Source: a virus
Taxonomy: Duplodnaviria > Caudoviricetes
Virus record (IMG/VR): IMGVR_UViG_3300025426_000021
Location: 20,229 to 84,228 of that record
DNA: 64,000 bases
Direction: 5' to 3' (one strand)
The translations under genes and the position numbers were made by a program. Below the pieces are notes generated by a model. The model was given only the letters and a program-made list of their open reading frames with translations, did no database searches and was not told the origin of the DNA. Shown piece by piece: positions 25,359 through 59,203 of the stretch. Within the stretch, counting starts at the first letter, position 1; every line of letters begins with the position of its first letter.

Positions 25359-25414
25359 ATATAGACTTAGTAAAAAAACTTGTACTTCAAGGGCAATCCA
25401 GTAAGTAGTTAAAA

Positions 25415-26020
25415 ATGGAGCATTTTCAACACACTATTGCAGGTTGGTTTACATTTCCAGAACTATACAAAATCGCCGCTCAATATGTGCCAGATGGAGG
25501 TCATGTAGTTGAAATAGGTGCTTTTTTAGGCAAATCAACATCCTTTATGGCAGTTGAACTGTTTAACTCGGGTAAACGAGTAAAATTTGATGTTATTGAT
25601 ACTTGGCAAGGCAGTCCAGAACACGTAGAAACGTTTAAAGATCTAGGCTACGAACCTGGAGATAAAAATATACTTTACAAAGAATTTTTGCGCCATATGG
25701 AACCAGTAAGGCATATTATCAATCCATTGCGTACTGATTCAGTAACAGGTGGTAAACTTTACCCGGATGAGTCTTTAGATTTTGTTTTTATAGATGCGGG
25801 GCACGAATATGAAAATGTAAAAAACGATTTATTAACATGGTATCCTAAGGTAAAAAAAGGCGGGTTTATTGCTGGGCATGATTATTTTTTTCCGAGCGAT
25901 CCAGAACACGGACATAAATACCCCGGAGTAAAAAAAGCTGTAGATGAGTTTTTTACAAATATAAAAGCAGATGTTTTAATAAGTCCTGCAGAATATTGCT
26001 GGTTATACCAAGTGCGTTAA
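25415..26020 (+). CDS. Class I SAM-dependent methyltransferase (Methyltransf_24-like)
   Basis: VEIGAFLGKST, IDTW, DFVFIDAGHEYE, GGFIAGHDY. Confidence 0.85.
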   Translation: MEHFQHTIAGWFTFPELYKIAAQYVPDGGHVVEIGAFLGKSTSFMAVELFNSGKRVKFDVIDTWQGSPEHVETFKDLGYEPGDKNILYKEFLRHMEPVRHIINPLRTDSVTGGKLYPDESLDFVFIDAGHEYENVKNDLLTWYPKVKKGGFIAGHDYFFPSDPEHGHKYPGVKKAVDEFFTNIKADVLISPAEYCWLYQVR

Positions 26021-29232: not shown

Positions 29233-29964
29233 TTATTTAGTGTTTCTTTCGGCGGAAGCAATAAAGTCGTAGAACTCTTTTCTAGTCTCAGGCTCGTTCA
29301 TGAAATCCTTAGATAGTTTAGAAGTAATCATTACTGCACCGTGATGCTTTACACCTCTATGACAAGCACAAGTATGAGAGCATTTTACTACTACTGCAAC
29401 ACCTTGGTTCTTTTCACATATTTCGTCAATAGCTTTATGGATTTGAACTGTTAAAGCTTCCTGTACTTGTGGTCGACGAGCATAATGCTCTACAATACGA
29501 TTTAGCTTTGATAGACCAATAACCCGTCCGTCTTTACTTGGGATATATGCAACGTGTGCTACACCAGTAAAAGCTAAATGGTGATGGCTACACATTGATA
29601 CTAAAGGTATATTACACTGACTTACAATACCGTCATAACCATCTGAAGGGAATGAAGTAATCTTAGGCGGTTGATCGTAGCAACCTTTAATAAGATCACA
29701 TACATAAGCCTTAGCTACACGCTTTGGTGTACCTTCACTATTAGGATCATTACGCCAGTCAATCTGTAAAGCATCTAAGAAGCCTTCATAAGCTTTGGTA
29801 GCGTTAAGGATAATTTCTGTCTTTTCTTCTTCGGTACGAGGTATATTACTATTCGCAGTAGGAAGAGGTGGGTGTTTAACTCTTGATGTTGTTGCCATAT
29901 TAAATGATTTTACGGACTTAAACTTTTCGCCCGTTGTATAACTCTGATTTGTTATTGATTCCAT
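29233..29964 (-). CDS. folE: GTP cyclohydrolase I (start may be 29898)
   Basis: TPKRVAK, SMCSHHHL, IGLSKLNRIV, RRPQVQE, HTCACHRGV. Confidence 0.95.
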   Translation of the reverse strand: MESITNQSYTTGEKFKSVKSFNMATTSRVKHPPLPTANSNIPRTEEEKTEIILNATKAYEGFLDALQIDWRNDPNSEGTPKRVAKAYVCDLIKGCYDQPPKITSFPSDGYDGIVSQCNIPLVSMCSHHHLAFTGVAHVAYIPSKDGRVIGLSKLNRIVEHYARRPQVQEALTVQIHKAIDEICEKNQGVAVVVKCSHTCACHRGVKHHGAVMITSKLSKDFMNEPETRKEFYDFIASAERNTK

Positions 29965-35725: not shown

Positions 35726-36862
35726 TTATTCTTTTGTAAGCTTTTCAGCCTCGTCTAGAACTGAGTTACTTGACCCGTACCCGACTTTCTCTTTAAGAGT
35801 CTGTTCGAGTACCGGTAGTACTTTCTTATCCCAAAACTCGGTATCGTTTTCCCAAGTTTTTCTATAACCGATCTTCTCTCCATTAAACTGAAACGTAGAA
35901 CCGGTTTGTTGAATAACTCCAAACGCTACTGCCATATCAGCTAAGCCAGCATAGCGACTTAAACCAGTACGGAAGTTATTGTATAGTTCTGCCTTCAAGA
36001 AAGCAGGTACAAAGCGGTTCTTAACTGTCATTGCTGACAATGTAACACCGCTTACGTTATGAGCTACCGCGATTGATTCTTCTCCTTCGTTCTTGTCGAT
36101 TTTTTCGTTTCTAGTCGCAAGCTGTACGAGCAGAGAAGCAAGATAAATAGGGCCAGAACCACCGGACTGTTTTTTAACCAATTCAGGATAGAGTGAAGTT
36201 GGGTTATCATAAATGTGATTAGTAAAAAGAATAGGCACACGAGCCTTAGCTGCTTTAAAGGTTAAAGCGCGCATCATAGACTTCATTGCTTTAGCTTTTG
36301 TACCCATATCTGCTGCGTCCTTACCTTCTGTAACGTCACGAAGCTCTTTAGCGCTTGCTAAATTACCAAGACTATCAATAGCTATAATAACCTTTAAGTT
36401 AGGGTCATTAGCTGCAATAATCTTATCTAAGAATGTAGCGATTTGGTTACGACAGTCTTCTACTGTTTCTACTGGATAGTATTTTAAGCGTTTTGGATCA
36501 ATACCAACACCCTCTGCAGATTGCTTATCTACTGCTGCTTCCGTATCCCAGACAGCAGCAAAGTAGCCTTTCTTTTGAGCGTTTGCAATGATCTTATTAA
36601 CAATAAGCGTCTTACCCGCACCGGAAGGCCCGGAAAAACCAGTAACCCTACCAACAGGAATACCCTTGTAAAGAGATCCAGAAAAGATAGCATTAAGTGC
36701 ATAAGAGCCTGTATCGATCCAGTCGCCTACAATAGAAAGAGAGTTATCATCTGAAAGCAGAGATGCATCTGCATTTAGTGCATCTACTGCTTCAAAGATA
36801 TCTTTCATTGACGAAACCTTAGTCTCGTCATTGTTTACGTCTGTACGTGGTTTACGTGCCAT
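35726..36862 (-). CDS. uvsX: RecA-like recombinase UvsX
   Basis: IDTGSYALN, GPSGAGKT, DTEAA, IDSLGNL, TNH, SGGSG, KNRF. Confidence 0.93.
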   Translation of the reverse strand: MARKPRTDVNNDETKVSSMKDIFEAVDALNADASLLSDDNSLSIVGDWIDTGSYALNAIFSGSLYKGIPVGRVTGFSGPSGAGKTLIVNKIIANAQKKGYFAAVWDTEAAVDKQSAEGVGIDPKRLKYYPVETVEDCRNQIATFLDKIIAANDPNLKVIIAIDSLGNLASAKELRDVTEGKDAADMGTKAKAMKSMMRALTFKAAKARVPILFTNHIYDNPTSLYPELVKKQSGGSGPIYLASLLVQLATRNEKIDKNEGEESIAVAHNVSGVTLSAMTVKNRFVPAFLKAELYNNFRTGLSRYAGLADMAVAFGVIQQTGSTFQFNGEKIGYRKTWENDTEFWDKKVLPVLEQTLKEKVGYGSSNSVLDEAEKLTKE

Positions 36863-36863
36863 A

Positions 36864-37211
36864 TTATTTAGCTTCGTCGTCAAACAACTTTACTACAGGT
36901 GTATTAGCGTTAATAGCTGTAGTAGCGAACATTTGTGCGTATTGTAGTTGTAGGTTAGCTTCAAGTTCAACGTCACTTACTACTACAGTAGACTTAGAAT
37001 ACGTCCAGTTAGCAAACTCATCACGATTTGCTGTAAACTCTCTAAAGAATACAGGATAGAGTTGTACTTGTAGTTTCTTGTCTGGTGTAGGTGTAACCTG
37101 TAAGATAACAGGCTTAGTTACTGTTAAAGTAGTTTTATCTTCACTTACTAGAGTGGCGATAATCGTACGTTGAATATTATCTAGGAATGTTACTAGTTTA
37201 TCTTGGCTCAT
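36864..37211 (-). CDS. Hypothetical protein (possible Sm-like fold)
   Basis: 115 aa beta-rich ORF with its own promoter. Confidence 0.6.
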   Translation of the reverse strand: MSQDKLVTFLDNIQRTIIATLVSEDKTTLTVTKPVILQVTPTPDKKLQVQLYPVFFREFTANRDEFANWTYSKSTVVVSDVELEANLQLQYAQMFATTAINANTPVVKLFDDEAK

Positions 37212-37217
37212 ATGTTT

Positions 37218-37245
37218 ATATTAATATAGTTTTTGTTTTAATCAA
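37218..37245 (-). promoter_or_regulatory. Sigma70-type promoter TTGATT-N16-TAATAT, 6 nt before ATG
   Basis: Matches the recurring consensus. Confidence 0.6.
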
Positions 37246-37247
37246 GG

Positions 37248-38165
37248 TTATTGACGAGGAAACTTAAAATAAGGGTACTTTGAGTTTATTAAATGTTGAT
37301 CTAATAGTTTTTTATCAGATGCACGAGTTGGCACGATGTCCCAGCCACCACGACGGGCATAAAAACAAGTTACCATAAGTTCATCTGGTTCTAATAAGTC
37401 CCAAAGACGTTTATAAGCAGCTTCACAGATTTCTTCATGGAAATGACATTCATTACGGAATGATACGATCCATTCTAGTAAAGATTGTTCAGTTACTTCT
37501 TTATCGCTTTTATAGTAGATAAAGATATCACCTGAATCTGGTTGCTTTGTAATCTTACAGTTAGAACGTAATAGAGTGCTCATATAGAAGTGCTTTTTAT
37601 TCACTTCAGATTCATTAGCTACTAACAAATCAGCTGATTCGTTGAATATTGTAAACTTAATACTTTCTGCGCTCTTAATACTTTCTAACGGTAACCAGAT
37701 ACCAGGATCATAATCTCTTAACCAAACTTCACGAGCAGCAAAGTCTTTTATTTGTACTTGTGGAAATAGATCAACTTCTACATCTGTCTCTAATAGTTTA
37801 GATAGGTCTTCTGAAGCAGTCTTTTTAATATTGTTTAATGCTTCTGCTACAGTCTTACCCATAGGCTGCATATTAAATGAGTTCCAGTAGAGCTTCATTG
37901 ACTTAGACTCTACAATATAAGGGTTAGTAGCTGGATACACTACTTTAGCAACACAGGTAACAGGTAAACCGTTATTTGTTAATGCACTACATTCATAACC
38001 GTTCCAGATATCGTAACCTACGAATGGTAAGGAATCGTTCTGTAAACCTAAGTAGGTACGATTGCGTTGACGTTCTTCACGCACTAAGATCTCAGGCGTG
38101 TAGGTGGTAGGAGAATCAACTCTCTGACCAAGTACTTTGTCAATATTATTAGTATTATAGCTCAT
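37248..38165 (-). CDS. queF: NADPH-dependent preQ0 reductase QueF (bimodular type)
   Basis: QueF motif VESKSMKLYWNSF, catalytic LLRSNCKITKQPD, FHEEICE, YARRGG. Confidence 0.92.
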   Translation of the reverse strand: MSYNTNNIDKVLGQRVDSPTTYTPEILVREERQRNRTYLGLQNDSLPFVGYDIWNGYECSALTNNGLPVTCVAKVVYPATNPYIVESKSMKLYWNSFNMQPMGKTVAEALNNIKKTASEDLSKLLETDVEVDLFPQVQIKDFAAREVWLRDYDPGIWLPLESIKSAESIKFTIFNESADLLVANESEVNKKHFYMSTLLRSNCKITKQPDSGDIFIYYKSDKEVTEQSLLEWIVSFRNECHFHEEICEAAYKRLWDLLEPDELMVTCFYARRGGWDIVPTRASDKKLLDQHLINSKYPYFKFPRQ

Positions 38166-38730
38166 TGGTAAAATCTTTCTTTAAGTTATCAGTTACAATC
38201 TTAACTCTATCTTCTACAGAACCCATTACATAAACAAGTTTATCTGTAGGCATTGAATGGTGTTTTAGATAAAAGTCAAACTGCTTAACAACACCATCAA
38301 AAAACTCCTTACCTGTACTTCTCTCACCATCATCTTTTACTTCAAGTTCAGGTACAACATAAAAAATCTTATCATATACTTTTAGCAGTTCTTCATAAAC
38401 AGCTAAAGCAGCTTGATACACATCTTTACTAACTTGACCTTTTTCATAAAAGTAAGTCGTGTAAGCAATACCATCTAAAGCACCTCTATCTAATATCCAG
38501 TTACCCGGAGTTAAACCGTACTCTAAATGTCTAGCCATTATCAAATACTGAGTTAAAGAAGTACCGCCTTCATTAATAGGTACATTTAAATCTTTAAGAC
38601 CTCTCGTTAGATTAGTTCTAAAACTAAAATGCTGATCGTCTAAAAACAGATCATCTTTTAGTGCTTTTACTAACGTTGTCTTACCTTGTGAATGAGCGCC
38701 ACAGATTGCAGCTTTATAGTTTGATCTCAT
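38155..38730 (-). CDS. P-loop nucleotide/nucleoside-monophosphate kinase-like (AAA_28) protein
   Basis: GAHSQGKTT Walker A, ILDRGALD..AY, YDKIFYV, DDGERS. Confidence 0.75.
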   Translation of the reverse strand: MRSNYKAAICGAHSQGKTTLVKALKDDLFLDDQHFSFRTNLTRGLKDLNVPINEGGTSLTQYLIMARHLEYGLTPGNWILDRGALDGIAYTTYFYEKGQVSKDVYQAALAVYEELLKVYDKIFYVVPELEVKDDGERSTGKEFFDGVVKQFDFYLKHHSMPTDKLVYVMGSVEDRVKIVTDNLKKDFTNEL

Positions 38731-38733
38731 AAG

Positions 38734-39312
38734 TTATTTATTTAATAGGCTTTTGCGCATAAAGCCAACCCAATTTTCGATTGCCAGTTTATGCAGTCTT
38801 CCAATATAATCGTCTAAGCTATCAAATTCATTGTAGATATTCTTGCTATAAAACTCTTTCTCAGACACTACTTTACCAGCATCTACTTCAGGTATAACTT
38901 CATGTATAACGTGTCCGTGCTGATAGTAAGGTCTTTCGGCGTGACTGAACCACACTTTAGCCTGAGGATCTTTACCTTTTAACTCAGGAAACTTAGTTAT
39001 AAGACCTGGATGTCCGTTGTATATCTTGAATCTACCGCAGATCTGTGGCGGTAGTATACGAAGATAACCGTGAAGAGTAATAATATCGGTATGCTTAATA
39101 GCCTCTCTATATTCTTCTACTGTTGGTTTCTTAGGTAAAAATATAAAACGATCAAAACATTTTTCTAGAAGATTAGGATTGATTTTGTCCATATCTTCAA
39201 AGCTTTTATTAGTTATGATTGCATCTGGAAACCTACCGATATGCTTAGATATCTCATATATCTCAGATCCACTCTGAGAGAAAAAGGTTTTCCAGATTAA
39301 GGTACGTTTCAT
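38734..39312 (-). CDS. PurN-like formyltransferase, probable preQ1 formyltransferase (DpdN-like)
   Basis: FFSQSGS, LHGYLRIL, YNGHPGL, LKGKDPQ, HEVIPEVDAG (formyl_trans_N Asn/His/Asp residues); located between the dpdA-like gene and queF. Confidence 0.8.
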   Translation of the reverse strand: MKRTLIWKTFFSQSGSEIYEISKHIGRFPDAIITNKSFEDMDKINPNLLEKCFDRFIFLPKKPTVEEYREAIKHTDIITLHGYLRILPPQICGRFKIYNGHPGLITKFPELKGKDPQAKVWFSHAERPYYQHGHVIHEVIPEVDAGKVVSEKEFYSKNIYNEFDSLDDYIGRLHKLAIENWVGFMRKSLLNK

Positions 39313-39539
39313 ATGTTTAGTCGATACCCTATTGTATTATCACTAAAGAAAATTACAAGTGTAAAGTCAACAATACCGTGTTTTATTAGGTAAGGTTTAA
39401 CATCTGCAAGCTCTTTTACCGGGAGTTCATGATTACGAATACAATCCCAGAAAGAATAATCGCGGATATAAACAGAATCGGCCAGTAAGTGAGGATAGTT
39501 TGCATGTACAGAATTAGTTATAGCTTCTAAAGTTGTCAT
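39309..39539 (-). CDS. Small hypothetical protein in modification operon
   Basis: 76 aa; 4-nt stop/start overlaps on both sides. Confidence 0.55.
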   Translation of the reverse strand: MTTLEAITNSVHANYPHLLADSVYIRDYSFWDCIRNHELPVKELADVKPYLIKHGIVDFTLVIFFSDNTIGYRLNI

Positions 39540-40342
39540 CCATTAACATAGTTTCTAAACTGAATCAGATTGCTTGCAATGATTCTTTCTTGTATTTCAT
39601 CTGGTACTACATCTAAAAGATCTACAAGTTTGGTAGATTCTTTCTTCCAGTTACCAATAACATCAGAATATCTTACTCTTTTAATACCATGTACAATAGG
39701 AGAAGAAGTATCTAGTGTTTCGATCCAGTTATATTCAGGTCCTTGATAGAAACTAAACTCTCTTGGGTGTGCACAACCTAATAAATGATGAGGTTTATCT
39801 TTATTAATGATACCGTCATTCATTAACTGAGTTAAAGTTATTACTCTACCCATCATATAAGATACCCACTTGTTAGGATGAGGAAATGCTTTAAGGTAAT
39901 AAGAATAGTCAAATGAAATAGCTAGTTTATCTACGCCGATCTCTTGATCTAGTGCTACATAACACTTAACTAGTTCACCGTAAGTCTTTCCTTGCACAAC
40001 ACCAATAGTTTTAGAGCTACTAACAAAGTCCCAATCTTTCCATAAGCACTTCTTAGCTGAATCAATAGTACCTTGACAATCTTCTAACACGTCTGGTATA
40101 ATATATTCTGTAGGGTTAAGCTTTTGTATCCAGTGAGCATAACGTTTAGAGTCAAAAGAGGTACCTAACTCAAATATAGAGTTATCTAATAAAACATGCC
40201 TACCACCTTTAACACTGTCTTCAAAGAACTTGTAGTATTGCGGGTGAGTTTCAAAGAGGTGCACGAGTGCATAGCAGTAATCGTTGTATGTACGAGATAT
40301 CTCGAGCATACTTAAGGGAGATTCGTGTGATATTTTAATCAT
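39536..40342 (-). CDS. TGT-fold 7-deazaguanine insertion enzyme (DpdA-like)
   Basis: TGT-type motif order LLDNS / IIPDV / VVQG / HHLLG / LDTSS; no C-terminal Zn site; queF, queC, queD, queE and folE are present in the window. Confidence 0.75.
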   Translation of the reverse strand: MIKISHESPLSMLEISRTYNDYCYALVHLFETHPQYYKFFEDSVKGGRHVLLDNSIFELGTSFDSKRYAHWIQKLNPTEYIIPDVLEDCQGTIDSAKKCLWKDWDFVSSSKTIGVVQGKTYGELVKCYVALDQEIGVDKLAISFDYSYYLKAFPHPNKWVSYMMGRVITLTQLMNDGIINKDKPHHLLGCAHPREFSFYQGPEYNWIETLDTSSPIVHGIKRVRYSDVIGNWKKESTKLVDLLDVVPDEIQERIIASNLIQFRNYVNG

Positions 40343-42900
40343 GAGAATATGTCAAATAAGTCTGTTGTTACTTCGTTAGTTAAATCTGGTAAACGCCATC
40401 CAATAGCTTCATATACAGCTAATATCGGCGGTTTAATTATTGTATCGAACATTTCAATATAGTCTACTTGAAATTCATTAAATTCTGGTGGAAAGTTGTA
40501 AGGGTAACAAAGAGTATCGATATTATACTTGTTTGGTGCAATATAAATCTTCTTTACTTTGCCACCGGAAGTAATTCGTTCATACTTTGTTTCCAAATGT
40601 AAATGTTTTAGTAGTTGGTTATACCATAATGCACCTTTAACGTGATTAGGTGTGCCGGTACCTATCTTAAAGCCATCTGCTTTTACTTCGTACTTCTCTA
40701 AATCACTAAGACCGCCACGGATAGCTATTTCATCAACATTTAACTTTTTAAATGCATCGTAAACCTCTTTATAAAGACTGTTTGCCTTTATTTGATCCTG
40801 ACCTAACAAAGAGTTCTCAATAACCTTCTTAATCAGTTCTTTTGCTTTCTTTGGCGTTGTAGACCTAGCGATTTCAACCCCAACGTACTTAAACTTACTA
40901 ACATTTGCACCTTCATCGTTTAATACATGAATAATATAACGTTTCTTTTGCAGGTAAACACCTACATCACAAATCGACTCCCGTTTAAAGAAGTAACGAG
41001 GATCGATAGACTTAAACTCAGAAGCAGACCACTTTTTAATCTCACTATTTAAGTATGTACCAATCTCTTTGTCTATTAAATCTATACCTTCTGGTGTTAC
41101 TTTACCGTCTTTAAATATGTTAAGCTTAATTTTATCAAGGATAGGTCTAATAGTAATATGAGTACTATCAGTATCACCGTAAATGTTAAGGGACGTATTA
41201 ACCCCGTATTTGTCTTTAGCGTATTTATCAAGGATGATACCCGCCTGCTTAACCACTGACTGACCAGTAAGAGTAATACTACCGGCGTGATCACTATCGC
41301 AAATAGGGCTAAACTTATTAGCAAAAACACCATAAATAGAATTAAGAAGAATTTTAATAACGTGCTGGATGGTGTCAGCTCGTTCCATATTAAACTTACA
41401 CGTTTTGTACTCATCTGTATCTGGGGGTAAATTACTTAGTTGTTTTTTGTATTCAATGTATTGGTTCTTATTTCTTACACGTTCACTATAAAGACCATCA
41501 ATCAATGAAGGCACAACGCCTTTTTTCTTTTGAGTATATAAAACATTAGCTTTAGATATAGCTAACTTTTCTATCTCCATAAACTTTTCAAGTTTATCGA
41601 GTGGTACCGTCTTTTCTGCACCACTAGCTAATAATAACGTTGCTTCTGTATCTGTCTTGCGTACGATTTTGCCTATTTTAGTTTCTGGTGATATATTGAG
41701 AGTAATAATGGTGTTAGGGTATAGAGAGTTAGCGTCATAACTCACAATAGCAGTCTTTAAACCGCGTTCAGGATCTCTAACGTACCCACCTTCGATTTCA
41801 TCTCTAGTAGGACCAGACACAAACGTTGGTATAACCAAACCGTGCTTGTATGCTTCTAAAGCAACACAACCGGTAACAATTTGAACTTTACCTAAAGCAG
41901 CTTCAAAGCTAGTTAAACCTTTGTAAGCTAACATACGTATGATCTTAAAAAACTGTAGTTTCTTTTCCATTCGTACTAACAGATCAACGTCTTGAATATT
42001 ATAGTCTACAAAGTTTTTCCAATCGCTACCGGCTAAAGCGGCTAGGTTAGTAGCGTTAATAGCTAGTTTACCTTCACCTAGTTCATGTTGTGCTACAAAG
42101 TTTAGTGCATATGACTCTAATAAACCACGTGCAAAGCCTTTATACACTTCCATGTAGTCCATAGCTGATATACCGTGAATGTACCAACGATCTAGCTCTT
42201 GACCTTTAACAAAGATACCTTTACGACACCAAAGACTTTTTAATGGAGATAAACGCTTTGCAGCATCTTCACCTAATAAGTTATTGATACGATTAATAGT
42301 ATAAGGAAAGTCGAAAAAGTCCGTGTTCCACCCGCTAAGAATATCTGGGTAATAATCGTTTTCCCAGAACTCTAGAAACTTATTAAGCAAATCCACCTCA
42401 CTACGACACTCTGTATATACAACATTGTCGCGTGTTGGTGTATAAGGTTTTTCACCCCAAGTATAAAACGTATCAGATAAGTTGTCATATATGGTTATAA
42501 GGTTAATAGGGTGCTTTGCATCCTTAGCTTCAGGAAACTCATCTGGCGAGTAAACTTCGATATCAAGAAAGCAAACCTTTAACGGGTTAGCAGAAAACTC
42601 AGGTTTTTCGTAGTCATCTTTATACTTTTCGATAAGAAACTGTTGCTCTACCTGAATATTGTGATATAAACGTTTAATAGCACCATCTTGTGCAGACTTA
42701 TTACGTTCATACGAGTTCTTAAATACCTTCTTCTTTAACTTAGTGTTAAAAATAGATATAGCATCGTGATTGTCCTGATTAGTCTCTACATAAAAGTAAG
42801 GACTATACAGTTCTTTCTTAACAACCCGTTTACCGTTTTTGTCCCAGGTAAATAGGTATGCAGAAGATTCTCTTGAGTTATAATATACGTTACGATACAC
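40339..42900 (-). CDS. Family B DNA polymerase (gp43-like)
   Basis: LDIE (ExoI), GWN..FFD, YNIQD, YDANSLYP, KILLNSIYG, YGDTDS, KKRY. Confidence 0.97.
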   Translation of the reverse strand: MYRNVYYNSRESSAYLFTWDKNGKRVVKKELYSPYFYVETNQDNHDAISIFNTKLKKKVFKNSYERNKSAQDGAIKRLYHNIQVEQQFLIEKYKDDYEKPEFSANPLKVCFLDIEVYSPDEFPEAKDAKHPINLITIYDNLSDTFYTWGEKPYTPTRDNVVYTECRSEVDLLNKFLEFWENDYYPDILSGWNTDFFDFPYTINRINNLLGEDAAKRLSPLKSLWCRKGIFVKGQELDRWYIHGISAMDYMEVYKGFARGLLESYALNFVAQHELGEGKLAINATNLAALAGSDWKNFVDYNIQDVDLLVRMEKKLQFFKIIRMLAYKGLTSFEAALGKVQIVTGCVALEAYKHGLVIPTFVSGPTRDEIEGGYVRDPERGLKTAIVSYDANSLYPNTIITLNISPETKIGKIVRKTDTEATLLLASGAEKTVPLDKLEKFMEIEKLAISKANVLYTQKKKGVVPSLIDGLYSERVRNKNQYIEYKKQLSNLPPDTDEYKTCKFNMERADTIQHVIKILLNSIYGVFANKFSPICDSDHAGSITLTGQSVVKQAGIILDKYAKDKYGVNTSLNIYGDTDSTHITIRPILDKIKLNIFKDGKVTPEGIDLIDKEIGTYLNSEIKKWSASEFKSIDPRYFFKRESICDVGVYLQKKRYIIHVLNDEGANVSKFKYVGVEIARSTTPKKAKELIKKVIENSLLGQDQIKANSLYKEVYDAFKKLNVDEIAIRGGLSDLEKYEVKADGFKIGTGTPNHVKGALWYNQLLKHLHLETKYERITSGGKVKKIYIAPNKYNIDTLCYPYNFPPEFNEFQVDYIEMFDTIIKPPILAVYEAIGWRLPDLTNEVTTDLFDIFS

Positions 42901-42905
42901 AAAAC

Positions 42906-42935
42906 ATATTATGTACCATTTTACAAACTAATCAA
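42906..42935 (-). promoter_or_regulatory. Sigma70-type promoter for the pol-dpdA-queF operon
   Basis: TTGATT followed by CATAAT/TAATAT, 5-7 nt before the GTG start. Confidence 0.5.
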
Positions 42936-44095
42936 GAAGGAAAGTAAACTTTCATATGCTCATCAATGTGATCTTCTAACCAATACTTGGTTGCAACCTT
43001 ACGAGCATCATCCGACTCATTTAAGTACATTCTACGATCTTTTAGTAGCTTCTTAGCTAGATCCATCATTTCATCAGGAGTATTAAACCGTAGAGGTGCT
43101 ACAGGATCTGTATTGTATGGTGGAGCATCTTGGCATAAACATGGAATACCTAATGCACCTGCTTCAAGATACTTAATGGGTGCTTTTGCATAGTTAAACC
43201 TGTTATTTTGTAAAGGTGCAAATGCTAAGTTTAAGTTTAACGAATCAAACGTATAACTATACTCATACAAGCTCTTCCAAGGTACATATTCAACTTCACC
43301 AGCTGCAATTAAATCTTGCACACCGAAAGGAGCGGCTCCAAAAAACACCCACTTGTAATCTTTGTAAGTCTTACGAATAATATCAGTAAATGGTTCAATA
43401 TCATCTACCACTCCAGGCAAGCGCTGTACATTAAGGTGGGTTGGACTACCAACATAACCGATACGAGGACGTTTCTTGTTGCGATCAAAGTTCTCCGCCA
43501 CTCTTTGTTTACTGTAAAAACGATCCATCCAAAACTTAGGTAGGTAGTTAGGTACTACAATAGCGGGTACACCAGTCTTTTCTGTATAATAATCTGCCAT
43601 GTACTTGGTAGGGCAAGTAATAGCATCACAGAGCTTAATAATCTCTATTGCTGTTTTACCAATAATAGGGTTAACAAATGCTTCTCTAGACTTGTTGTAT
43701 AATGGAATATCTTCTGGGAAAATAACGTCATCGATTTCATAATACAGTTTAAACTTGCTTCCATTATCAGAAGTATGTCTTAAGAACTTAGCAAACTGAA
43801 GTTGTGGTTCAGTGACTTGACGTTGTATCTTAACTGATTGTATATTTTGATACTGTCTTGGGTCAAGTATCATCATCGTAGAGTTCTGTACAACTCCTTT
43901 ACCTGAAGAGTTGATTATAGATTCTGGCCAGTGCATACGCCAAAAACCGCATCCACCATGGTCAGCAGCAAAGCTCATTGCCATCTTTGTAGGTGGTACG
44001 CTTGGAAGTACTGGTTGAGAGTTAGGTGTAGTTACCCCTAAAGTAGGAGCTCCTAATGGTAATGCTGGTGCACCGATTACGAATGAGTTATTCAT
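42932..44095 (-). CDS. GT-B fold glycosyltransferase
   Basis: GGCGFWRM, YEIDD, RIGYVGSPTH, APLQNNRFNYAKAPIKYLEAGALG. Confidence 0.8.
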   Translation of the reverse strand: MNNSFVIGAPALPLGAPTLGVTTPNSQPVLPSVPPTKMAMSFAADHGGCGFWRMHWPESIINSSGKGVVQNSTMMILDPRQYQNIQSVKIQRQVTEPQLQFAKFLRHTSDNGSKFKLYYEIDDVIFPEDIPLYNKSREAFVNPIIGKTAIEIIKLCDAITCPTKYMADYYTEKTGVPAIVVPNYLPKFWMDRFYSKQRVAENFDRNKKRPRIGYVGSPTHLNVQRLPGVVDDIEPFTDIIRKTYKDYKWVFFGAAPFGVQDLIAAGEVEYVPWKSLYEYSYTFDSLNLNLAFAPLQNNRFNYAKAPIKYLEAGALGIPCLCQDAPPYNTDPVAPLRFNTPDEMMDLAKKLLKDRRMYLNESDDARKVATKYWLEDHIDEHMKVYFPS

Positions 44096-45911
44096 TATTA
44101 AAGTTGTTTGATCTTACTGTTATGCCGTTTTTCTTTTCTAGGAATATGATTTCACCACTTGTACAGTACTTCATACTTTCCTTGCGGTGTGATATTATAT
44201 ACACTGCCTCTTGGTACTTTTCCACTCTATCCCGTATTATATCCAATACTAGTTCAATACCTTTTTCGTCTAAAGACGAATCAAGTAGTTCATCAAATAC
44301 AGATATATTTAACCATACATTAGCTTGTGCTCTACGGATATCTTGAAACGCAAATATCATTGCAAGATCGATAGCTTTACGTTCAGCTCCAGAGAAGTTA
44401 AAATAACTACATACTGCACCACGTTCATTAGTGATAGTTTCTTCAAAGAACTCATTAAACTTAACTGTACTGTTACTTTCAAGCTTCTTAAGATAGTAAG
44501 CAAGTCTAAGATTGAGTACCTCTAATATCTTTTTAACAATAAACGATTTTACACCTTCTTCAGAAGTAATAAACTTAGCTGATTCAATAATATCGATCTT
44601 AATCTGTAGTTCATCTACTTTAGCTTTTACTTCAGATATACGGTCTTCAATCTTTTTAATATTGTCTGTATATACATTATCCTCGTTATTAAGAGCATCA
44701 ATATCTACTACAAGTTGAGATTGCCATACATTGAGTTGATTTAAACGATTATTAATGTTTTCTACTTCTTTTTTACGAATATTAAAATCGTTTATCTTTT
44801 TCTGTGCATTAGTAATATGAGTCTCAACTTTATTTAACTGACTTTGTGCTTCTACTAAAAGTGGTTTTTGAGTATTAACAATCTCTGTATATTTTTGTAT
44901 TTCTGCATGACACTCTGCTTTATCTTTTTCGTATTGAGTATTAGTTGCTTCAGCGAGATCTTTACCGCAATGTGGACATTTACTATCTACTTTTTTAAGT
45001 TTTTTAATACGGTCATTATTAAGCTTAATATGGGTTTCTGCTTCAGTAATAAGCTTATTAACCGCAGCTATTTTACGATCGCATAAAGTTTCAGCAGTTT
45101 TAAGGGCTGCCATATTATCTAATATCTTTTTCTCAGCTTCAGTATCGACTGATTCGAGCTTACCGATCTTTTCGTTAATAAGCGCAATCTCTTGCTGATT
45201 GTTACGCTGACGAGTAAGTAGTACTTCTTTACGTTTTAACTTACTCTCTTCATAAACTTGTTTTTGTTTAATACTATCTTGTAAAGCTCTATCATTTTCG
45301 TCTACCTTAGCGTGTTCAACATCTAATAAACGTTTTACTTCATTAAAGTCAAAACGAGCAATACTTAACATATTGCTAAACACTTCTAAACCAAGTATAC
45401 CCTCAATAAACTTACGTTTCTCGATCTTTTTCTGAGCCATAAACGGAACTGTATTGTTTATGGTCATTACTACACTATTCTGAAATACTTCTGGTGAAGT
45501 GTCAATAATATCAATAATATATTCAGTTGTTTGTGGTACACCTGAACGGGTTTTATCTTCTCCGTTTACGAAGAGAAAACATTTGGTAGGATTAAGTGTT
45601 CTTACTATTTTATATTCTGTCTTAACATGATTAACATCTGTAGTAAACTCGATCTCTACTTCACAAACATCTTCTGGATAGAGATTATTGACAATATTCT
45701 CTTTTTTAAGCTCTCTAATAGTAGAGCCGTATAGAGCAAAATGAATAGCATCTGCAATAGTAGATTTACCTACACCGTTAGCACGATCTGCCTTGTCTAG
45801 ATTGCGGCCAGTAATAATGTTTAAGCCTGGCTTAAAATCTACAGTAACCGGGCGTTTACCAACAGATAAAAAGTTAGTTATCTTTAAAGACTTAAAAAAT
45901 ACGTACTGCAT
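44088..45911 (-). CDS. Recombination endonuclease subunit gp46 (Rad50/SbcC-like)
   Basis: NFLSVG, NGVGKS, CPHCG zinc hook, FSGAE signature, FDELLDSSLD, ISH. Confidence 0.95.
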   Translation of the reverse strand: MQYVFFKSLKITNFLSVGKRPVTVDFKPGLNIITGRNLDKADRANGVGKSTIADAIHFALYGSTIRELKKENIVNNLYPEDVCEVEIEFTTDVNHVKTEYKIVRTLNPTKCFLFVNGEDKTRSGVPQTTEYIIDIIDTSPEVFQNSVVMTINNTVPFMAQKKIEKRKFIEGILGLEVFSNMLSIARFDFNEVKRLLDVEHAKVDENDRALQDSIKQKQVYEESKLKRKEVLLTRQRNNQQEIALINEKIGKLESVDTEAEKKILDNMAALKTAETLCDRKIAAVNKLITEAETHIKLNNDRIKKLKKVDSKCPHCGKDLAEATNTQYEKDKAECHAEIQKYTEIVNTQKPLLVEAQSQLNKVETHITNAQKKINDFNIRKKEVENINNRLNQLNVWQSQLVVDIDALNNEDNVYTDNIKKIEDRISEVKAKVDELQIKIDIIESAKFITSEEGVKSFIVKKILEVLNLRLAYYLKKLESNSTVKFNEFFEETITNERGAVCSYFNFSGAERKAIDLAMIFAFQDIRRAQANVWLNISVFDELLDSSLDEKGIELVLDIIRDRVEKYQEAVYIISHRKESMKYCTSGEIIFLEKKNGITVRSNNFNNE

Positions 45912-45919
45912 TAGAGATC

Positions 45920-45947
45920 ATTATAATCTCTAGCTATTCTTTTTCAA
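45920..45947 (-). promoter_or_regulatory. Sigma70-type promoter TTGAAA-N16-TATAAT, 8 nt before gp46 ATG
   Basis: Near-consensus hexamers with a 16-nt spacer. Confidence 0.65.
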
Positions 45948-46790
45948 CGTGTTTAGAAAATATTTTGCAACCGCACTTGTTGTACAGTTTTCGTAAAGTG
46001 CTTTCCTGAAAGTTTCAATGTACTGTTCATACACTTTAACTGGATCTGTTTTCTTCTGAAGCAAGCTCATTACCTCTTGACATTCCTTTTTAGGAAACGT
46101 TGCCATGGTTAATGAAGGGCAGTTTTCTATATTATAAAACACAGGAATACATCCGTTACCAAGTATTTCGTAATGTCTTAAACAGTCCCAACCAGCTTTT
46201 TTAACTGTTACTCCAAATCTCGATTGATTATAATCATTATAATAATCTTTTTCGTTTTTGTATATGTATGTACTCTTATCTAAAGGAGTAATAAATGCCC
46301 CATTACGTGTTTTATTCGTGTTGAAGTTAACTTTAGAATCTGGTATAGCAAAAGTAATAGGAAACAAACGGTCTTTTTGATAAACAAGTTCTCTCTTAAA
46401 ATACATTATACCGCGATTATAAACCGGGTGTATATTTGTTTCATCTTCACCGTCTACTGCTACAACTTTATCAAACGGGTAATATTTTAATATATCATCG
46501 ATATAATCATTACATCTCCAAATAGAACCATACACAATAAGATCGTAGTGTTTGTTTTTTATCTTAGAAGTAATATCAGTACGATCAACTTCTAAATCTG
46601 GCAACACACGGGTTACTGTCATACCCATACCATAAAGTTTACTAGCCTTTTCAGCATCATAAGTGTCGTAGTTATGGGCTTGTTTATTATAGTCTACTAC
46701 ATCTGCACCGTATAACTGTTTCAAGCCTATCAACAACGCATCGTTTTGATAGTCTACGTGATCGCCTTTTGTTAAATAAAGTATTTTCAT
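45930..46790 (-). CDS. Glycosyltransferase-like protein
   Basis: VDGED, YFKRE, KKAGWDCLRHYEILGNGCIP (GT-B C-terminal motif). Confidence 0.65.
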   Translation of the reverse strand: MKILYLTKGDHVDYQNDALLIGLKQLYGADVVDYNKQAHNYDTYDAEKASKLYGMGMTVTRVLPDLEVDRTDITSKIKNKHYDLIVYGSIWRCNDYIDDILKYYPFDKVVAVDGEDETNIHPVYNRGIMYFKRELVYQKDRLFPITFAIPDSKVNFNTNKTRNGAFITPLDKSTYIYKNEKDYYNDYNQSRFGVTVKKAGWDCLRHYEILGNGCIPVFYNIENCPSLTMATFPKKECQEVMSLLQKKTDPVKVYEQYIETFRKALYENCTTSAVAKYFLNTLKKNS

Positions 46791-47677
46791 AAATGTTTTA
46801 ATAATGACTTAACTCTAGACATAGCAGTATGATACTTTGATACTTTATCAAACCCAGCTTGCGCTATCTTAAGTCTTTCATCTTTGTGTTCAGTATAGTA
46901 GTTAACTTTATTGATACAATCATCTAAAGAATCAAAATAAACAATCTCTTTACCTTCTTCAAATATTAAATCAATACGAGTACCTGGTTCAGGTCTATCA
47001 GCAATGACCATTCTATTAGCTAGCATGCCTTCAAATATACGTCGTGTAACCTCTTTATATTGACTGTTTTGTAATACTATTTTACCTCTTCTAAGATATG
47101 ATGAATGTTCTAAAGCATGCAACCCGCTACGAGTATCAAAACGTTTACCTAATCGGGCTCTTACACTTTGAAAAAACTTGTCAGAAACATCTCTAGTACA
47201 TACAGCATCTAAATCAGGTTCAATGCTATACACTCTTTCAGGATACATATCAGTATCTGCAAAGTGCGGAAACCACATAGCATTATAGCCTTGGGAGTTG
47301 TATGTAGCACAACATCTAATATCTGGAGATAAAATAATATCAAAGTTACCAGCTTTAGCTTTAATATAGTTGTTATTAAAGCTTTGAGGGTCATCTCCAG
47401 ACTCTAATACCCATATTGCAGATGGGAATGAGCTCTTTTTAAGTAACGGGCTTTGAAAGCGTCCATAATCAAAGTTAATAATAACATCTGGTACAAATGT
47501 ACCATTGTTTGCGTCTGTTAGTAATGCTTTTAACCCGTCTTCCGAGTATTGATCTTCAACAGTCATTGAAGAGTAACATTTTGTAGTGTGTCCTAGTTTG
47601 TCAAAAGCATTTTGTATGGCTATTGAAGTATTCCAAACATCTTGAGGGGTTCTAGGATATAAAAACGAAATGTTCAT
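46787..47677 (-). CDS. Glycosyltransferase (Glyco_trans_1_2/CgeB-like)
   Basis: GDDPQ, RRIFEGM, FEEGKEIVYF, ERLKIAQAG...HT...RV. Confidence 0.8.
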   Translation of the reverse strand: MNISFLYPRTPQDVWNTSIAIQNAFDKLGHTTKCYSSMTVEDQYSEDGLKALLTDANNGTFVPDVIINFDYGRFQSPLLKKSSFPSAIWVLESGDDPQSFNNNYIKAKAGNFDIILSPDIRCCATYNSQGYNAMWFPHFADTDMYPERVYSIEPDLDAVCTRDVSDKFFQSVRARLGKRFDTRSGLHALEHSSYLRRGKIVLQNSQYKEVTRRIFEGMLANRMVIADRPEPGTRIDLIFEEGKEIVYFDSLDDCINKVNYYTEHKDERLKIAQAGFDKVSKYHTAMSRVKSLLKHL

Positions 47678-48418
47678 TTAAAGTATATACGGTTTGAACT
47701 GTTTAAATCCACCTGATTTGAACGGCTCGTTATTCCATTTATCTGCTAAAATATTACCCTGTTTGTTCATGTTCTCTGGGGTATAATCTGTTCTAGAAGA
47801 GCCTTTAGCAGATGTACCACCTACTTTATGTTTAACTCTAGCACTGGTTAATACACCATGTAACAGTTTGTTTCTTTCTAAACACATTGAGTAATCATTA
47901 TCTTGATAAAAGAAAAAGAAACGTTCATCAAGATAACCTATAACTTCAAATACTCCGCGTCTTGCTGCAAATATACAACCAAACAAGTGTAAAGATGTTT
48001 CATACCCATAATAAAGTTTATTATCATCAGGAAAATACTGTTTAGTATGACGATGCCAATTTCTATCAATAGGGCTAATAGAACTGATAGTAGAGTTGGT
48101 TTCAAACTCTTTTACGATGTTTTGTATACAGTTTTCTTGTATTATTAAATCGTTATTAGGGCCTATTATATAATCTGATTTACAACGGCTTAAACCTATA
48201 TTAAAAAACTGGTTATAGTTAAACTCGTAAGGGGGTATTATTACCTCTACTTTAGGTTGATTATAATCTCTATTAAAGGTTTTATTAGTTTCAATAACAA
48301 ATATATTGTTAATGAGTTCATCAGCTGTATTAATATAAGAATCAATACATCTTTTAGTTACTTCAAAGCTCTTGTCATCGTTAACAAGAGATAAAATGAT
48401 TACATCAACTTTGCTCAT
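47678..48418 (-). CDS. GT2-family glycosyltransferase
   Basis: VDVIILS, FNYNQFFNIG, NNDL, IGYLDERFFFFYQDNDY. Confidence 0.8.
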   Translation of the reverse strand: MSKVDVIILSLVNDDKSFEVTKRCIDSYINTADELINNIFVIETNKTFNRDYNQPKVEVIIPPYEFNYNQFFNIGLSRCKSDYIIGPNNDLIIQENCIQNIVKEFETNSTISSISPIDRNWHRHTKQYFPDDNKLYYGYETSLHLFGCIFAARRGVFEVIGYLDERFFFFYQDNDYSMCLERNKLLHGVLTSARVKHKVGGTSAKGSSRTDYTPENMNKQGNILADKWNNEPFKSGGFKQFKPYIL

Positions 48419-49154
48419 TAATAAAACTTTCTACATCTGGGTGCCCGTCATATTGATGAAATACAGCTGGTACATTGCTCTTATTCCATTTAGTTTGTAT
48501 GCTAACTTGTGCTAAGTTTAGTACAGTTGTTTTAGACCCTATTTCGTATCTGTATTGATCAAAACGAACCACCTTATTAAGTATGGCCTGATCTATATTA
48601 GCATAGTTTCCTATTCTACCTAATATAATAGAAGTATCTAAACACATTTCTTTTAATAAACCTATACACTGAGATCTCCAACCAAGTATGGCTCCTCCAT
48701 TAATAATCTCATACTTTTGTAACAATCCGTATATGTCTTGATTATAACATAAGTTTATCCAAGTAGTATTAGTCTGACAGTTACGTATTATCTGACCTTC
48801 CCCAAATACCATTGGTTTTACTGAAACGAAATCAAATATGTTTTTATTAAAATAAACATCGGTAAAATCACACAAAAACACATTATCAGCTGTAGAAATT
48901 TTACTGCAATACAGATAAAAGAAAATAACTTTAAGTGTATAAGGTGATAGTTTCATATCCACATTATACTTTTTCGCTATTTGATCAGCATCAACAAAGT
49001 TACAGTTATTTTTCTTGAGATAATCTAGTACATCTTGCTTAAGATTGTAGCCTATAACAGTGACAGTATTGTTAGTTTTTACAGCTGACTTAACAAAGTT
49101 TTCTATACCTTTGTTAAGACTGTAGTTCTGTCCATATGTAATGATTTCGTTCAT
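48405..49154 (-). CDS. GT-A-like glycosyltransferase
   Basis: CDFTDVYF, INGGAILG, DQAILN, HQYD. Confidence 0.6.
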   Translation of the reverse strand: MNEIITYGQNYSLNKGIENFVKSAVKTNNTVTVIGYNLKQDVLDYLKKNNCNFVDADQIAKKYNVDMKLSPYTLKVIFFYLYCSKISTADNVFLCDFTDVYFNKNIFDFVSVKPMVFGEGQIIRNCQTNTTWINLCYNQDIYGLLQKYEIINGGAILGWRSQCIGLLKEMCLDTSIILGRIGNYANIDQAILNKVVRFDQYRYEIGSKTTVLNLAQVSIQTKWNKSNVPAVFHQYDGHPDVESFINEQS

Positions 49155-49975
49155 TTACGGTATTTTATTTGTTTAAGTATATTTAAAACCTCGTTTTGAG
49201 TATAGTTTTTAGGTTCGTTCGGATAGTGTCCGTGTTTAGTCTTGTAAAGCTCTCTACCACCGTACACGTTCTTATGCCATTGTTCTTTCTTGTCTGCAAT
49301 AGATGAGTTATCGATAGCACCAGGAGCTTCTTCGAGGTATTTCTCACTATCAGCTATATCAGCAAACCACCAAAATGGAGGATGGTAACCAGCTAGTGCA
49401 ATACGATAGGTATGGTCTACGTGTTCCCAAGCATTATAAAACTGCTCGTCAATATAGCCTACCTTCTCGAGTACTTCTCTTGTAAAAAACGAAAACATTG
49501 CTACTGTATGAGTATATAATGCAATCTTAATTTCTCCAGGATACTCAATAACAATACGAGGATTAACAGGACTCTTTTGATCGAGTAAATGTCTATTATG
49601 AAGATCAAACTCTATGTTTTGTTTACGGTTAAATGGTGAACCAGGTCCGTAGTTAAAATGTTGTATACCGGTTTCTTGATATGCTTCAATGTATTTCATA
49701 AATACATTTTTATCTTTAATAAGCATATCATCTTCAATAATAAAAATATAATTACAACCAGCATCATAAAGATACTTCATTGCTTTGTTTTTAGATTTAC
49801 CTACACCAAGATTGACTTCATTCTGTAACCAAGTACCTGGTACCTCTATTTGATTTTCAGCCTTACCGTCGTTAACTACGACTAAAGCATCTACCACGTC
49901 CATAGGAAGTGTAGTTATTAAAGCTTTTAAGTAGTTGTTTCTGTTACAGGTAATAATACCAACACCGATTTTCAT
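49151..49975 (-). CDS. GT2-family glycosyltransferase
   Basis: GIITCNR, VVNDG, NLGVGKSKN, IEDD, VGYIDE, EHVD. Confidence 0.82.
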   Translation of the reverse strand: MKIGVGIITCNRNNYLKALITTLPMDVVDALVVVNDGKAENQIEVPGTWLQNEVNLGVGKSKNKAMKYLYDAGCNYIFIIEDDMLIKDKNVFMKYIEAYQETGIQHFNYGPGSPFNRKQNIEFDLHNRHLLDQKSPVNPRIVIEYPGEIKIALYTHTVAMFSFFTREVLEKVGYIDEQFYNAWEHVDHTYRIALAGYHPPFWWFADIADSEKYLEEAPGAIDNSSIADKKEQWHKNVYGGRELYKTKHGHYPNEPKNYTQNEVLNILKQIKYRK

Positions 49976-58939: not shown

Positions 58940-59203
58940 ATGAAACAAGAAATAAAATTCACATATACGTTAGAGCATACTGATGACGACACCAACGTTA
59001 GTGTACCTTGTAAGATTGAAATTACACTTGATGGTCAAGTTGGTTTAGAAGAACTAACAGAACAGTTTAATGCTTTTGTTAGGGCTATGGGTTATTATCC
59101 GTCAGACAACTGTGTACTTGATTGGGTAGATATTGAAACTGGTCAACCACCTGAAGATGATGAGGTTGCCAATATTAGTATAAAGCGTAAATTTAAAAAA
59201 TGA
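58940..59203 (+). CDS. Small acidic hypothetical protein
   Basis: 87 aa; contains FNAFVRAMGY. Confidence 0.6.
   Translation: MKQEIKFTYTLEHTDDDTNVSVPCKIEITLDGQVGLEELTEQFNAFVRAMGYYPSDNCVLDWVDIETGQPPEDDEVANISIKRKFKK

Follow-up and report, generated by a model that had tools for sequence, protein, structure and literature searches.

7-Deazaguanine phages and the locus studied

The DNA of Flavobacterium phage immuto_2-6A contains 345,000 residues of formylated preQ1 (fdPreQ1) per 10^6 nucleotides (nt) and gives no peak for deoxyguanosine (dG), as reported by Cui, Hutinet et al. 2023 (PMC10516641), who placed its gp206 in a new subfamily of the transglycosylase DpdA, DpdA3, that is also found in phages phiST and CP220. 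All G is replaced by dDG in phiST and by dADG in CP220; replacement was complete in the three DpdA3 phages tested (3/3), compared with 30% or less for the other DpdA subfamilies (PMC10516641). The same authors propose post-replicative insertion for all modifications of this kind, as every deazaguanine virus encodes DpdA (PMC10516641), and a review of restriction-modification likewise describes insertion by DpdA as post-replicative (PMC12707154). Here we analyse a DpdA3 cassette in a 64,000-nt stretch of environmental phage DNA (the window), which spans bases 20229-84228 of the IMG/VR virus record IMGVR_UViG_3300025426_000021 (84,228 bases, estimated 40% complete), and we find that the small P-loop kinase encoded in this cassette is almost always a neighbour of DpdA3.

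The cassette comprises six co-oriented genes, whose positions in a preliminary description of this DNA agree with the list of open reading frames (ORFs):

40339-42900, minus strand: DNA polymerase gene polB (853 aa; GTG start from the longest-ORF rule)
39536-40342, minus strand: DpdA-like protein, a DpdA3 homologue (268 aa)
39309-39539, minus strand: 76-aa ORF, translationally coupled on both sides
38734-39312, minus strand: formyltransferase-like protein, DpdN (192 aa)
38155-38730, minus strand: P-loop kinase-like protein (191 aa)
37248-38165, minus strand: bimodular QueF (305 aa)

The closest described system is that of immuto_2-6A, where gp206 (DpdA), gp204 (formyltransferase), gp203 (annotated as 'thymidylate kinase') and gp202 (QueF) follow each other in the window order, with identities to the window proteins of 49% (DpdA3), 43% (DpdN), 36% (kinase) and 42% (QueF). 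FolE, QueD, QueE and QueC are encoded in immuto_2-6A as well, and there is a short ORF after DpdA3 (gp205, 50 aa; 76 aa in the window). The two loci differ in their polymerase, which in immuto_2-6A belongs to family A and lies three genes on, whereas in the window a family B polymerase gene is joined at its end to the cassette. They also differ in the MazG-like gp208 and the phosphoribosyltransferase gp211 of immuto_2-6A, both without a counterpart in the window, and in that fdPreQ1 has been measured in immuto DNA, whereas the window product is predicted from genes alone. Given the gene order, the identities of 36-49% and the measured fdPreQ1 of immuto_2-6A, the window cassette is a member of the published system. 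Its gene content shows what is predicted to be a complete DpdA3/DpdN-type 7-deazaguanine hypermodification pathway, orthologous to the immuto_2-6A cluster, and most or all G of the virion DNA should be replaced by fdPreQ1. The gene identities and the formyl-preQ1 product put forward in the preliminary description are borne out by this orthology to a fully fdPreQ1-substituted phage. As the cassette type is already published in immuto_2-6A, the window is an environmental relative, and the cassette alone adds little.

CP220 resembles the window in having DpdA3 (gp056, 43% identity) and kinase (gp057, 32%) genes adjacent to each other and in its reported complete G replacement. It differs in lacking QueF and DpdN, in its end product, dADG, and in a gene for an HD + AAA_33 fusion protein (gp055) upstream. 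The DpdA3 gene of phiST (gp042), for which complete G replacement is reported too, lies beside that of a small AAA_18 P-loop protein (gp041) not demonstrably homologous to the window kinase; phiST also lacks QueF and DpdN, its end product is dDG, and its cluster, in which the MazG-like gp039 is found, runs up to a Pol III alpha gene.

The DpdA of the phage 9g type (DpdA1) shares with the window system the preQ0 supply genes, an LDSGAF-type motif and, in 9g, a place close to the polymerase within the replication module. It modifies only part of the G, 30% or less (PMC10516641), and it has no kinase gene beside it in 17/17 loci. Both 9g-type and bacterial DpdA exchange G in DNA post-replicatively, partially and depending on sequence.

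A small kinase accompanies DpdA3

We assembled 183 loci from two IMG/VR scans, a genome scan and seven named phages; 173 of them have a DpdA3 ORF, and there are 42 clusters at 70% identity. The count by locus used the 95 loci in which DpdA3 is flanked by 2.5 kb or more on each side, and a kinase was scored if it lay within 3 kb of DpdA3. Clusters 12, 20 and 36 end too near DpdA3, which leaves 39 informative clusters, whose representatives were tallied by hand.

A kinase homologue was found near DpdA3 in 86/95 loci and beside it in 30/39 clusters. In a further four clusters, those of phiST, MA9V-3, BSTP12 and Youna2, a different small P-loop gene takes this place; phiST gp041 is an AAA_18 protein and the MA9V-3 protein matches AAA_18/AAA_33. 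All four genes adjoin DpdA3, and those of MA9V-3, BSTP12 and Youna2 are small ORFs with a Walker A motif. The nine kinase-less loci among the 95 comprise these four phages, with another P-loop ORF each, and L164, L192, L169, L193 and L133, with none. The small kinase is therefore almost always a neighbour of DpdA3, and the check on co-occurrence of kinase and dpdA that had been proposed for this locus is positive.

Three cassette architectures recur: DpdA3-DpdN-kinase-QueF, as in the window and immuto_2-6A; DpdA3-kinase-QueF; and DpdA3 with kinase but no QueF, as in CP220, CC_R7 and L074. The kinase is thus retained where DpdN, or both DpdN and QueF, are missing (CP220, CC_R7, L074 and clusters 1, 7, 8 and 10). 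As the three architectures are intermixed across the DpdA3 tree, DpdN and QueF appear to have been gained and lost while the kinase persisted. Pairwise distances of DpdA3 and kinase correlate across 29 lineages (r = 0.64; 0/2000 permutations as high), a value that points to long joint inheritance, as would be expected of linked genes anyway.

As a control we used the DpdA of phage 9g and 17 related IMG/VR loci, a set of narrow diversity at 40-100% identity. No co-oriented small ORF with a Walker A motif lies within 2.5 kb of DpdA in any of these 17 loci, and the kinase profile found nothing in them but one match at E 0.005 in a 374-aa ORF.

The kinase itself matches Pfam AAA_28 (PF13521; E 4.6e-10, 40.4 bits against a gathering cut-off of 27) and phrog_2107, labelled 'thymidylate kinase' (E 3.1e-21), and residues G11, G16, K17 and T19 of its Walker A motif are invariant; there is no match among the NCBIfam models. 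In the PDB its family profile scores best with 8puu, a deoxynucleoside kinase (E 2.3e-4), and 6gye, the ribosylnicotinamide kinase of NadR (E 4.6e-3), followed by deoxyguanosine/deoxyadenosine kinases (E 0.12-0.4) and thymidylate kinase (E 0.14). Neither a guanylate kinase nor a T4 gp1 chain occurs among the matches up to E 1. We rejected the 'thymidylate kinase' label of PHROGs and GenBank, since the best thymidylate kinase chain is outscored by 8puu and 6gye and there is no family-model match (Pfam Thymidylate_kin at E ≤ 0.1, NCBIfam). Judged by these matches the protein is an AAA_28-group, NadR-kinase-like P-loop kinase, which may act on a nucleoside or on a nucleotide.

The window encodes a second AAA_28 kinase paralogue of 239 aa (59200-59919, plus strand; phrog_2107, E 2e-12), located after QueD, QueE and an 87-aa ORF. 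A profile built with this paralogue included detects two copies in CP220, but a single one, adjacent to DpdA3, in immuto_2-6A, in each of two immuto-like genomes that are near-complete and in a record of the window lineage (140 kb, 65% complete).

The partnership of DpdA3 with a small kinase that is lacking at 9g-type loci is what our analysis adds to the literature we found. The paper that defined DpdA3 does not use the word 'kinase' in its main text (PMC10516641). Literature searches on DpdA3, fdPreQ1, the CP220 kinase and a pre-replicative route found nothing that links a kinase to the pathway. Among the titles and abstract openings listed by broader searches, none concerns a nucleotide-level route in DpdA3 phages, and 'DpdA', 'kinase' and 'nucleotide' are absent from a paper on the QueC family (PMC13329287).

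Four further phages, namely Bacillus phage BSTP12, Weizmannia phage Youna2, Chryseobacterium phage MA9V-3 and Campylobacter phage CC_R7 (L097 to L100, in that order), encode distant DpdA3-like proteins at 24-28% identity, each gene with a small P-loop gene beside it. They are not among the phages named in the available portion of PMC10516641, and they are candidates for fully G-substituted genomes.

Exchange on free nucleotides or in DNA

Our preferred reading, to which we give a probability of roughly 0.45, is that in DpdA3 systems, including that of the window, the base is swapped on a free deoxynucleoside or deoxynucleotide, after which the kinase would take the product toward the triphosphate. 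DpdA3 would exchange guanine for the deazapurine on deoxyguanosine or its monophosphate (dGMP) and not in finished DNA, a choice of substrate to which we are weakly committed. Host guanylate kinase would refuse the modified product, and the P-loop kinase would phosphorylate it; a nucleoside-diphosphate kinase would then make the modified triphosphate, and the phage polymerase would incorporate it. DpdN would add the formyl group from formyl-folate, with either the free base or the monophosphate as its substrate. The latter would resemble glycinamide ribonucleotide, the substrate of PurN, in shape.

This route is favoured by the constancy of the kinase beside DpdA3 and its lack in 9g-type loci, together with its retention where DpdN, or DpdN and QueF, are absent. 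Nucleotide-hydrolase genes lie within the cluster of two of the three fully replaced DpdA3 phages (phiST gp039, MazG-like; immuto gp208, PRA-PH/MazG-like), which also favours a route through the nucleotide pool, as does the similarity of DpdN to PurN, including its N-terminal loop (see below). The HD domain of CP220 gp055 was considered as a dGTPase and not counted, being fused to an AAA_33 kinase. Three published observations point the same way: complete replacement is seen with DpdA3 only, attempts to obtain DpdA3 activity in E. coli failed, and the ADG nucleoside was observed in CP220-infected cells, within their cytoplasm (PMC10516641).

The hydroxymethyl-dCMP pathway of T4, with its dNMP kinase gp1, and the PurZ/MazZ/DatZ diaminopurine system both achieve full substitution before replication. 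If the nucleotide-level reading is right, DpdA3 systems would share with them a modified monophosphate, a dedicated kinase, removal of the canonical nucleotide and use of a phage polymerase. The enzymes are not homologous, however, and the nucleotide-maker would here come from a superfamily known to act on polynucleotides only. In addition, no canonical-dNTP hydrolase was found in the records of the window lineage (40-65% complete).

A number of points weigh against exchange on free nucleotides. To our knowledge, all characterised members of the TGT/DpdA superfamily act on a polynucleotide, and no member is known to use free nucleotides as substrate. Post-replicative insertion is also what was proposed when DpdA3 was defined (PMC10516641). 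A search of the 84-kb record and three related records for MazG, PRA-PH, HD and DCD genes, which could account for removal of dGTP, found none; since all four records are 40-65% complete, this absence is weak evidence. The substrate of the kinase cannot be read from its sequence, and its matches in the PDB are weak, with E 2.3e-4 at best. Natural fusions of DpdA3 with QueF and with DpdN exist, but none with the kinase was found among the fused forms, and no long protein matched the kinase.

Nor was the kinase found in every lineage. Five of the 39 clusters (14, 16, 19, 21 and 30) have none in the sequence analysed. The kinase-less locus L179 has the order DpdA3-DpdN-QueF-QueC, and in L133 (5983-11647) DpdA3 directly precedes a family B polymerase. 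Two of the other P-loop genes, in phiST and BSTP12, are not demonstrably homologous to the kinase. Phage phiST gp041 aligns with the kinase profile over the P-loop only (probability 1%) and BSTP12_039 reaches a probability of 26%; as both matches fall short of significance, we call these genes other P-loop genes and not orthologues.

The most serious alternative is that DpdA3 is a post-replicative DNA transglycosylase, replacing G in the DNA polymer with preQ1 or formyl-preQ1, with the kinase in a supporting role; we regard this as quite possible, if short of an even chance. It is the published proposal, founded on the presence of DpdA in every deazaguanine phage (PMC10516641), and it agrees with the LD(N/S)..F motif common to DpdA3 and 9g-type DpdA, and with the Atlas neighbours of DpdA3, which are labelled queuine tRNA-ribosyltransferase and include one cluster with Pfam DpdA in 17% of its members. 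The DpdA3-QueF and DpdA3-DpdN fusions would be consistent with synthesis at the level of the base for use by a DNA enzyme, and no dGTPase was found in the window lineage (records 40-65% complete).

On this post-replicative route the kinase might return the released guanine to GTP together with a phosphoribosyltransferase, heal nucleic-acid ends or serve general nucleotide supply. Guanine salvage would be in keeping with gp211 of immuto_2-6A, a phosphoribosyltransferase-domain protein encoded inside the cluster. This enzyme is not a general feature of the cassette, however, as searches with the immuto protein gave no match at E ≤ 1e-3 in other loci and none at E ≤ 0.4 in the window, and the kinase falls outside the guanylate-kinase family (no such PDB match up to E 1). 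End healing is suggested by the HD + AAA_33 fusion gp055 of CP220, whose layout recalls end-healing polynucleotide kinases and which we take to be a possible enzyme of that type. Post-replicative exchange leaves the constancy of the kinase beside DpdA3, and its lack at 17/17 9g-type loci, without a specific reason. The failure to observe DNA modification by DpdA3 in E. coli (PMC10516641) also argues against it.

Deazapurine bases can also be joined to phosphoribosyl pyrophosphate (PRPP) by a phosphoribosyltransferase, as in toyocamycin-type pathways. A corresponding pool route that bypasses DpdA3 (base plus PRPP, then kinase, ribonucleotide reductase and polymerase, with DpdA3 left to proofread residual G in DNA or to act on another target, for instance tRNA) would suit the phosphoribosyltransferase-domain gene between QueE and FolE in immuto_2-6A and the nucleoside kinases that are the kinase's nearest solved relatives, but it is improbable, as no phosphoribosyltransferase homologue was found in the window (best blastp E 0.48), none is a regular cassette member, a pool of analogue ribonucleotide would enter RNA too, and the gene most tightly bound to the kinase is DpdA3 itself (by the correlation given above, which linkage alone would lead one to expect).

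The kinase provides a concrete handle on how DpdA3 phages achieve complete G replacement, and its partnership with DpdA3 makes the choice between pre- and post-replicative modification testable by a few simple enzyme assays. Should base exchange on free nucleotides prove to be true, DpdA3 would be the first enzyme in the transglycosylase superfamily with a small-molecule substrate, and the published proposal that all 7-deazaguanines are inserted post-replicatively would be overturned. It would also offer an enzymatic way to 7-substituted 7-deaza-dGTPs and alter the way in which phage genomes are used to predict levels of modification.

DpdA3, DpdN and QueF

The DpdA-like protein of the window is 48.9% identical to immuto gp206 ('DNA guanine transglycosylase, DpdA') over 100% of the query (tblastn, E 4e-77), which places it in DpdA3. 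The founding members of the subfamily are immuto gp206, CP220 gp056 and phiST CGPG_00065. CP220 gp056 is annotated as a hypothetical protein of Campylobacter Firehammerviruses, and phiST gp042 connects to the window protein solely via the MA9V-3 homologue. The window protein belongs to phrog_19058 (E 5.5e-51), and sequence searches of Pfam and the PDB with it gave no match.

A direct comparison of the DpdA3 and 9g-type profiles with hhalign gave a probability of only 3.5%, with just the LDNSIFELG/LDSGAFS stretch aligned. Asp53 and Asp211 are among the columns invariant in 19 DpdA3 sequences, and we take them to correspond to the catalytic aspartates of TGT. The TGT fold of DpdA3 is thus presumed from homology to the published members, the short shared motif and the Atlas labels, and the window protein is a DpdA3-subfamily homologue, a distant relative of TGT/DpdA and presumably an enzyme of guanine/7-deazaguanine exchange. 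Loss of the zinc site was considered as a discriminating feature of DpdA3, in which CxCxxC is found in 0/19 aligned sequences and in 0/7 of the named phages. We dropped this argument because 9g-type DpdA, a DNA enzyme, lacks CxCxxC as well (0/14). The bacterial DpdA has the CxCxxC...H zinc site (PMC10164549).

DpdA3 is a large and viral family. Among 4007 candidates (90% clusters), 3863 proteins match at E ≤ 1e-3. In a separate search the family counts 3315 representatives at 50% identity; in viral metagenomes DpdA3 is thus abundant, and nearly always accompanied by one small kinase. IMG/VR holds at least 587 DpdA3 stretches. A scan of genomes, one per species for 185,579 species, found six DpdA3 loci, all on contigs of metagenome-assembled genomes.

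The best 150 matches of a profile search against 1.84 billion representatives are all plain DpdA3. The natural fusions mentioned above are DpdA3-QueF in P0121 and P0123 (531 and 568 aa) and DpdA3-DpdN in P0148 and P0246 (447 aa each). Other extended forms are P0235, with a C-terminal DUF3310 domain, P0122, with a NUMOD3 homing-endonuclease tail, and P0124, with a 320-aa head of no assigned family.

The formyltransferase gene product matches Pfam Formyl_trans_N (PF00551) at E 4e-7, over the cut-off, and is 43% identical (tblastn) to immuto gp204 (YP_010114479.1), the formyltransferase named DpdN in PMC10516641. The best structural matches of the DpdN family profile are PurN enzymes (5cjj, E 2.1e-8; E. 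coli 1c2t, E 3.9e-7), and the alignment extends to the N-terminal FSQtGSE loop. In PurN this loop holds the substrate phosphate. Asn99, His101 and Asp144 of DpdN are invariant; in the alignment they fall on the NxHPS and D.G stretches of PurN, whose Asn, His and Asp we take to be the catalytic residues. By profile match DpdN is closer to PurN, with its mononucleotide substrate, than to the tRNA or sugar-nucleotide formyltransferases. It is not PurN itself, as it scores 36 bits with the NCBIfam PurN model, far under the equivalog cut-off of 150. The product of 38734-39312 is therefore assigned as DpdN, a PurN-like protein predicted to make the formylamino group of fdPreQ1. DpdN adjoins DpdA3 in 60/62 loci of the first set and in 19/42 cluster representatives.

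Both domains of a bimodular QueF are present in the product of 37248-38165 (Pfam QueF_N, E 1.1e-28; QueF, E 8.4e-18). Compared with Vibrio cholerae QueF (3bp1, E 1.4e-32), it retains ESKSxKLY and SNCxITxQPD, which we take to be the NADPH motif and the catalytic-cysteine motif, respectively. It scores 221.7 bits with the NCBIfam QueF model, under the cut-off of 293. We assign it, on these matches, as a bimodular preQ0-to-preQ1 reductase.

FolE, QueD, QueE and QueC convert GTP to preQ0, and QueF reduces preQ0 to preQ1. All four supply genes, which the preliminary description had claimed to lie elsewhere in the window, were located there (QueE as a QueE-like protein), so that DpdA3, FolE, QueD, QueE-like, QueC and QueF are co-encoded:

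29233-29964, minus strand: FolE, GTP cyclohydrolase I (Pfam GTP_cyclohydroI, E 7.3e-48; 60% identity to immuto gp210)
57478-57942, plus strand: QueD, 6-carboxytetrahydropterin synthase (Pfam PTPS, E 1e-16)
57965-58771, plus strand: QueE-like radical-SAM protein, 7-carboxy-7-deazaguanine synthase (weak Pfam Fer4_12 match)
62933-63655, plus strand: QueC, preQ0 synthase (Pfam QueC, E 2.4e-62)

The QueE-like protein matches NCBIfam QueE models with E values down to 4.8e-14, every score being under the model cut-off.

Polymerase adjacency and the 76-aa ORF

The polB product is a T4 gp43-like family B polymerase (Pfam DNA_pol_B, E 1.4e-22; DNA_pol_B_exo1, E 1.6e-18; phrog_262, E 5.4e-189). Its gene abuts DpdA3 in 49/71 loci with enough upstream sequence, and all 49 are from the window lineage. 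Elsewhere the neighbouring polymerase is of family A (BSTP12, Youna2), Pol III alpha (phiST) or another type (CC_R7, L133), and mostly there is none. Phage 9g, with its partially modifying DpdA1, has the order DpdA-clamp-polymerase too. The coupling of the cassette to the polymerase had been put forward as an argument for a nucleotide-pool route, and we dropped it: adjacency does not discriminate, since 9g has the same neighbourhood, and it is absent from most DpdA3 lineages. Deazaguanine genes simply tend toward replication modules. In BSTP12, Youna2 and CC_R7 the DNA polymerase gene comes directly after the pair of DpdA3 and P-loop genes, and in MA9V-3 it does not. L133 has a dCTP-deaminase-like (DCD) gene 4 kb downstream and neither a kinase nor a deazaguanine synthesis gene within about 6 kb.

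The 76-aa protein is conserved (43-95% identity, 19 invariant columns) in the lineage of the window and in loci of the L074 type, and is absent from the cluster representatives of the remaining DpdA3 lineages. It has no match in Pfam, PHROG, NCBIfam or the Atlas, nor is it similar to the ORFs at the same position in immuto_2-6A (50 aa) and phiST (67 aa). It had been suggested as a component of the pathway, with co-occurrence with dpdA as a check; by this narrow distribution it is not a general one.

Locus L074 (8001-9603; also L075) has the order polB-DpdA3-76aa-kinase, with neither DpdN nor QueF. Identity to the window proteins is 86% for the 76-aa protein, compared with only 59% for DpdA3 and 44% for the kinase, which suggests a recombinant cassette; its product is probably a different deazaguanine. 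In the immuto-like clade a conserved ORF of 144-145 aa overlaps the start of DpdA3 by 4 nt (L081, 7570-8004; L088, 7570-8004; L096, 7567-8004). It has no window counterpart and no family assignment.

Setting of the cassette

The junctions of the cassette were read directly in the sequence. Stop and start codons overlap as ATGA between polB and DpdA3, between DpdA3 and the 76-aa ORF and between this ORF and the formyltransferase, confirming the three 4-nt overlaps described previously; a 3-nt gap separates formyltransferase and kinase, and kinase and QueF overlap by 11 nt. The claim that the six genes run from a single promoter is not upheld. A scan of 36500-44500 for sigma-70-type promoters gave 33 sites, compared with 28.6 +/- 5.1 in shuffled sequences, and no terminator-like site was found on the minus strand of the same region. 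The cassette is enclosed in a co-directional minus-strand block of about 30 kb (approximately 22.5-54.3 kb), with flanking genes only 31 and 36 nt away. Given the shuffle-level promoter count, the long block and the close flanks, a six-gene transcription unit is not delimited.

The window is DNA of a T4-like phage, with a replication module that encodes a gp32-like protein, UvsX, UvsY, helicase, primase, a clamp-like protein and a late sigma factor; no DNA-level match to the window was found among phage records. Directly upstream of polB (42932-49975, minus strand) is a glycosyltransferase-like run, consisting of a 387-aa phrog_7162 protein followed by Glyco_trans_1_2 and Glycos_transf_2 proteins; the phrog_7162 gene is kept beside polB across the whole window lineage. 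A sulfotransferase-domain gene and a Methyltransf_24 gene lie beyond this run (regions 42932-49975, minus strand, and 24699-26020). Two endonuclease genes are set among the replication and deazaguanine genes, one for a SegE-type GIY-YIG homing endonuclease (54646-55197, plus strand) and one for a TnsA-like endonuclease (60579-61034, minus strand).

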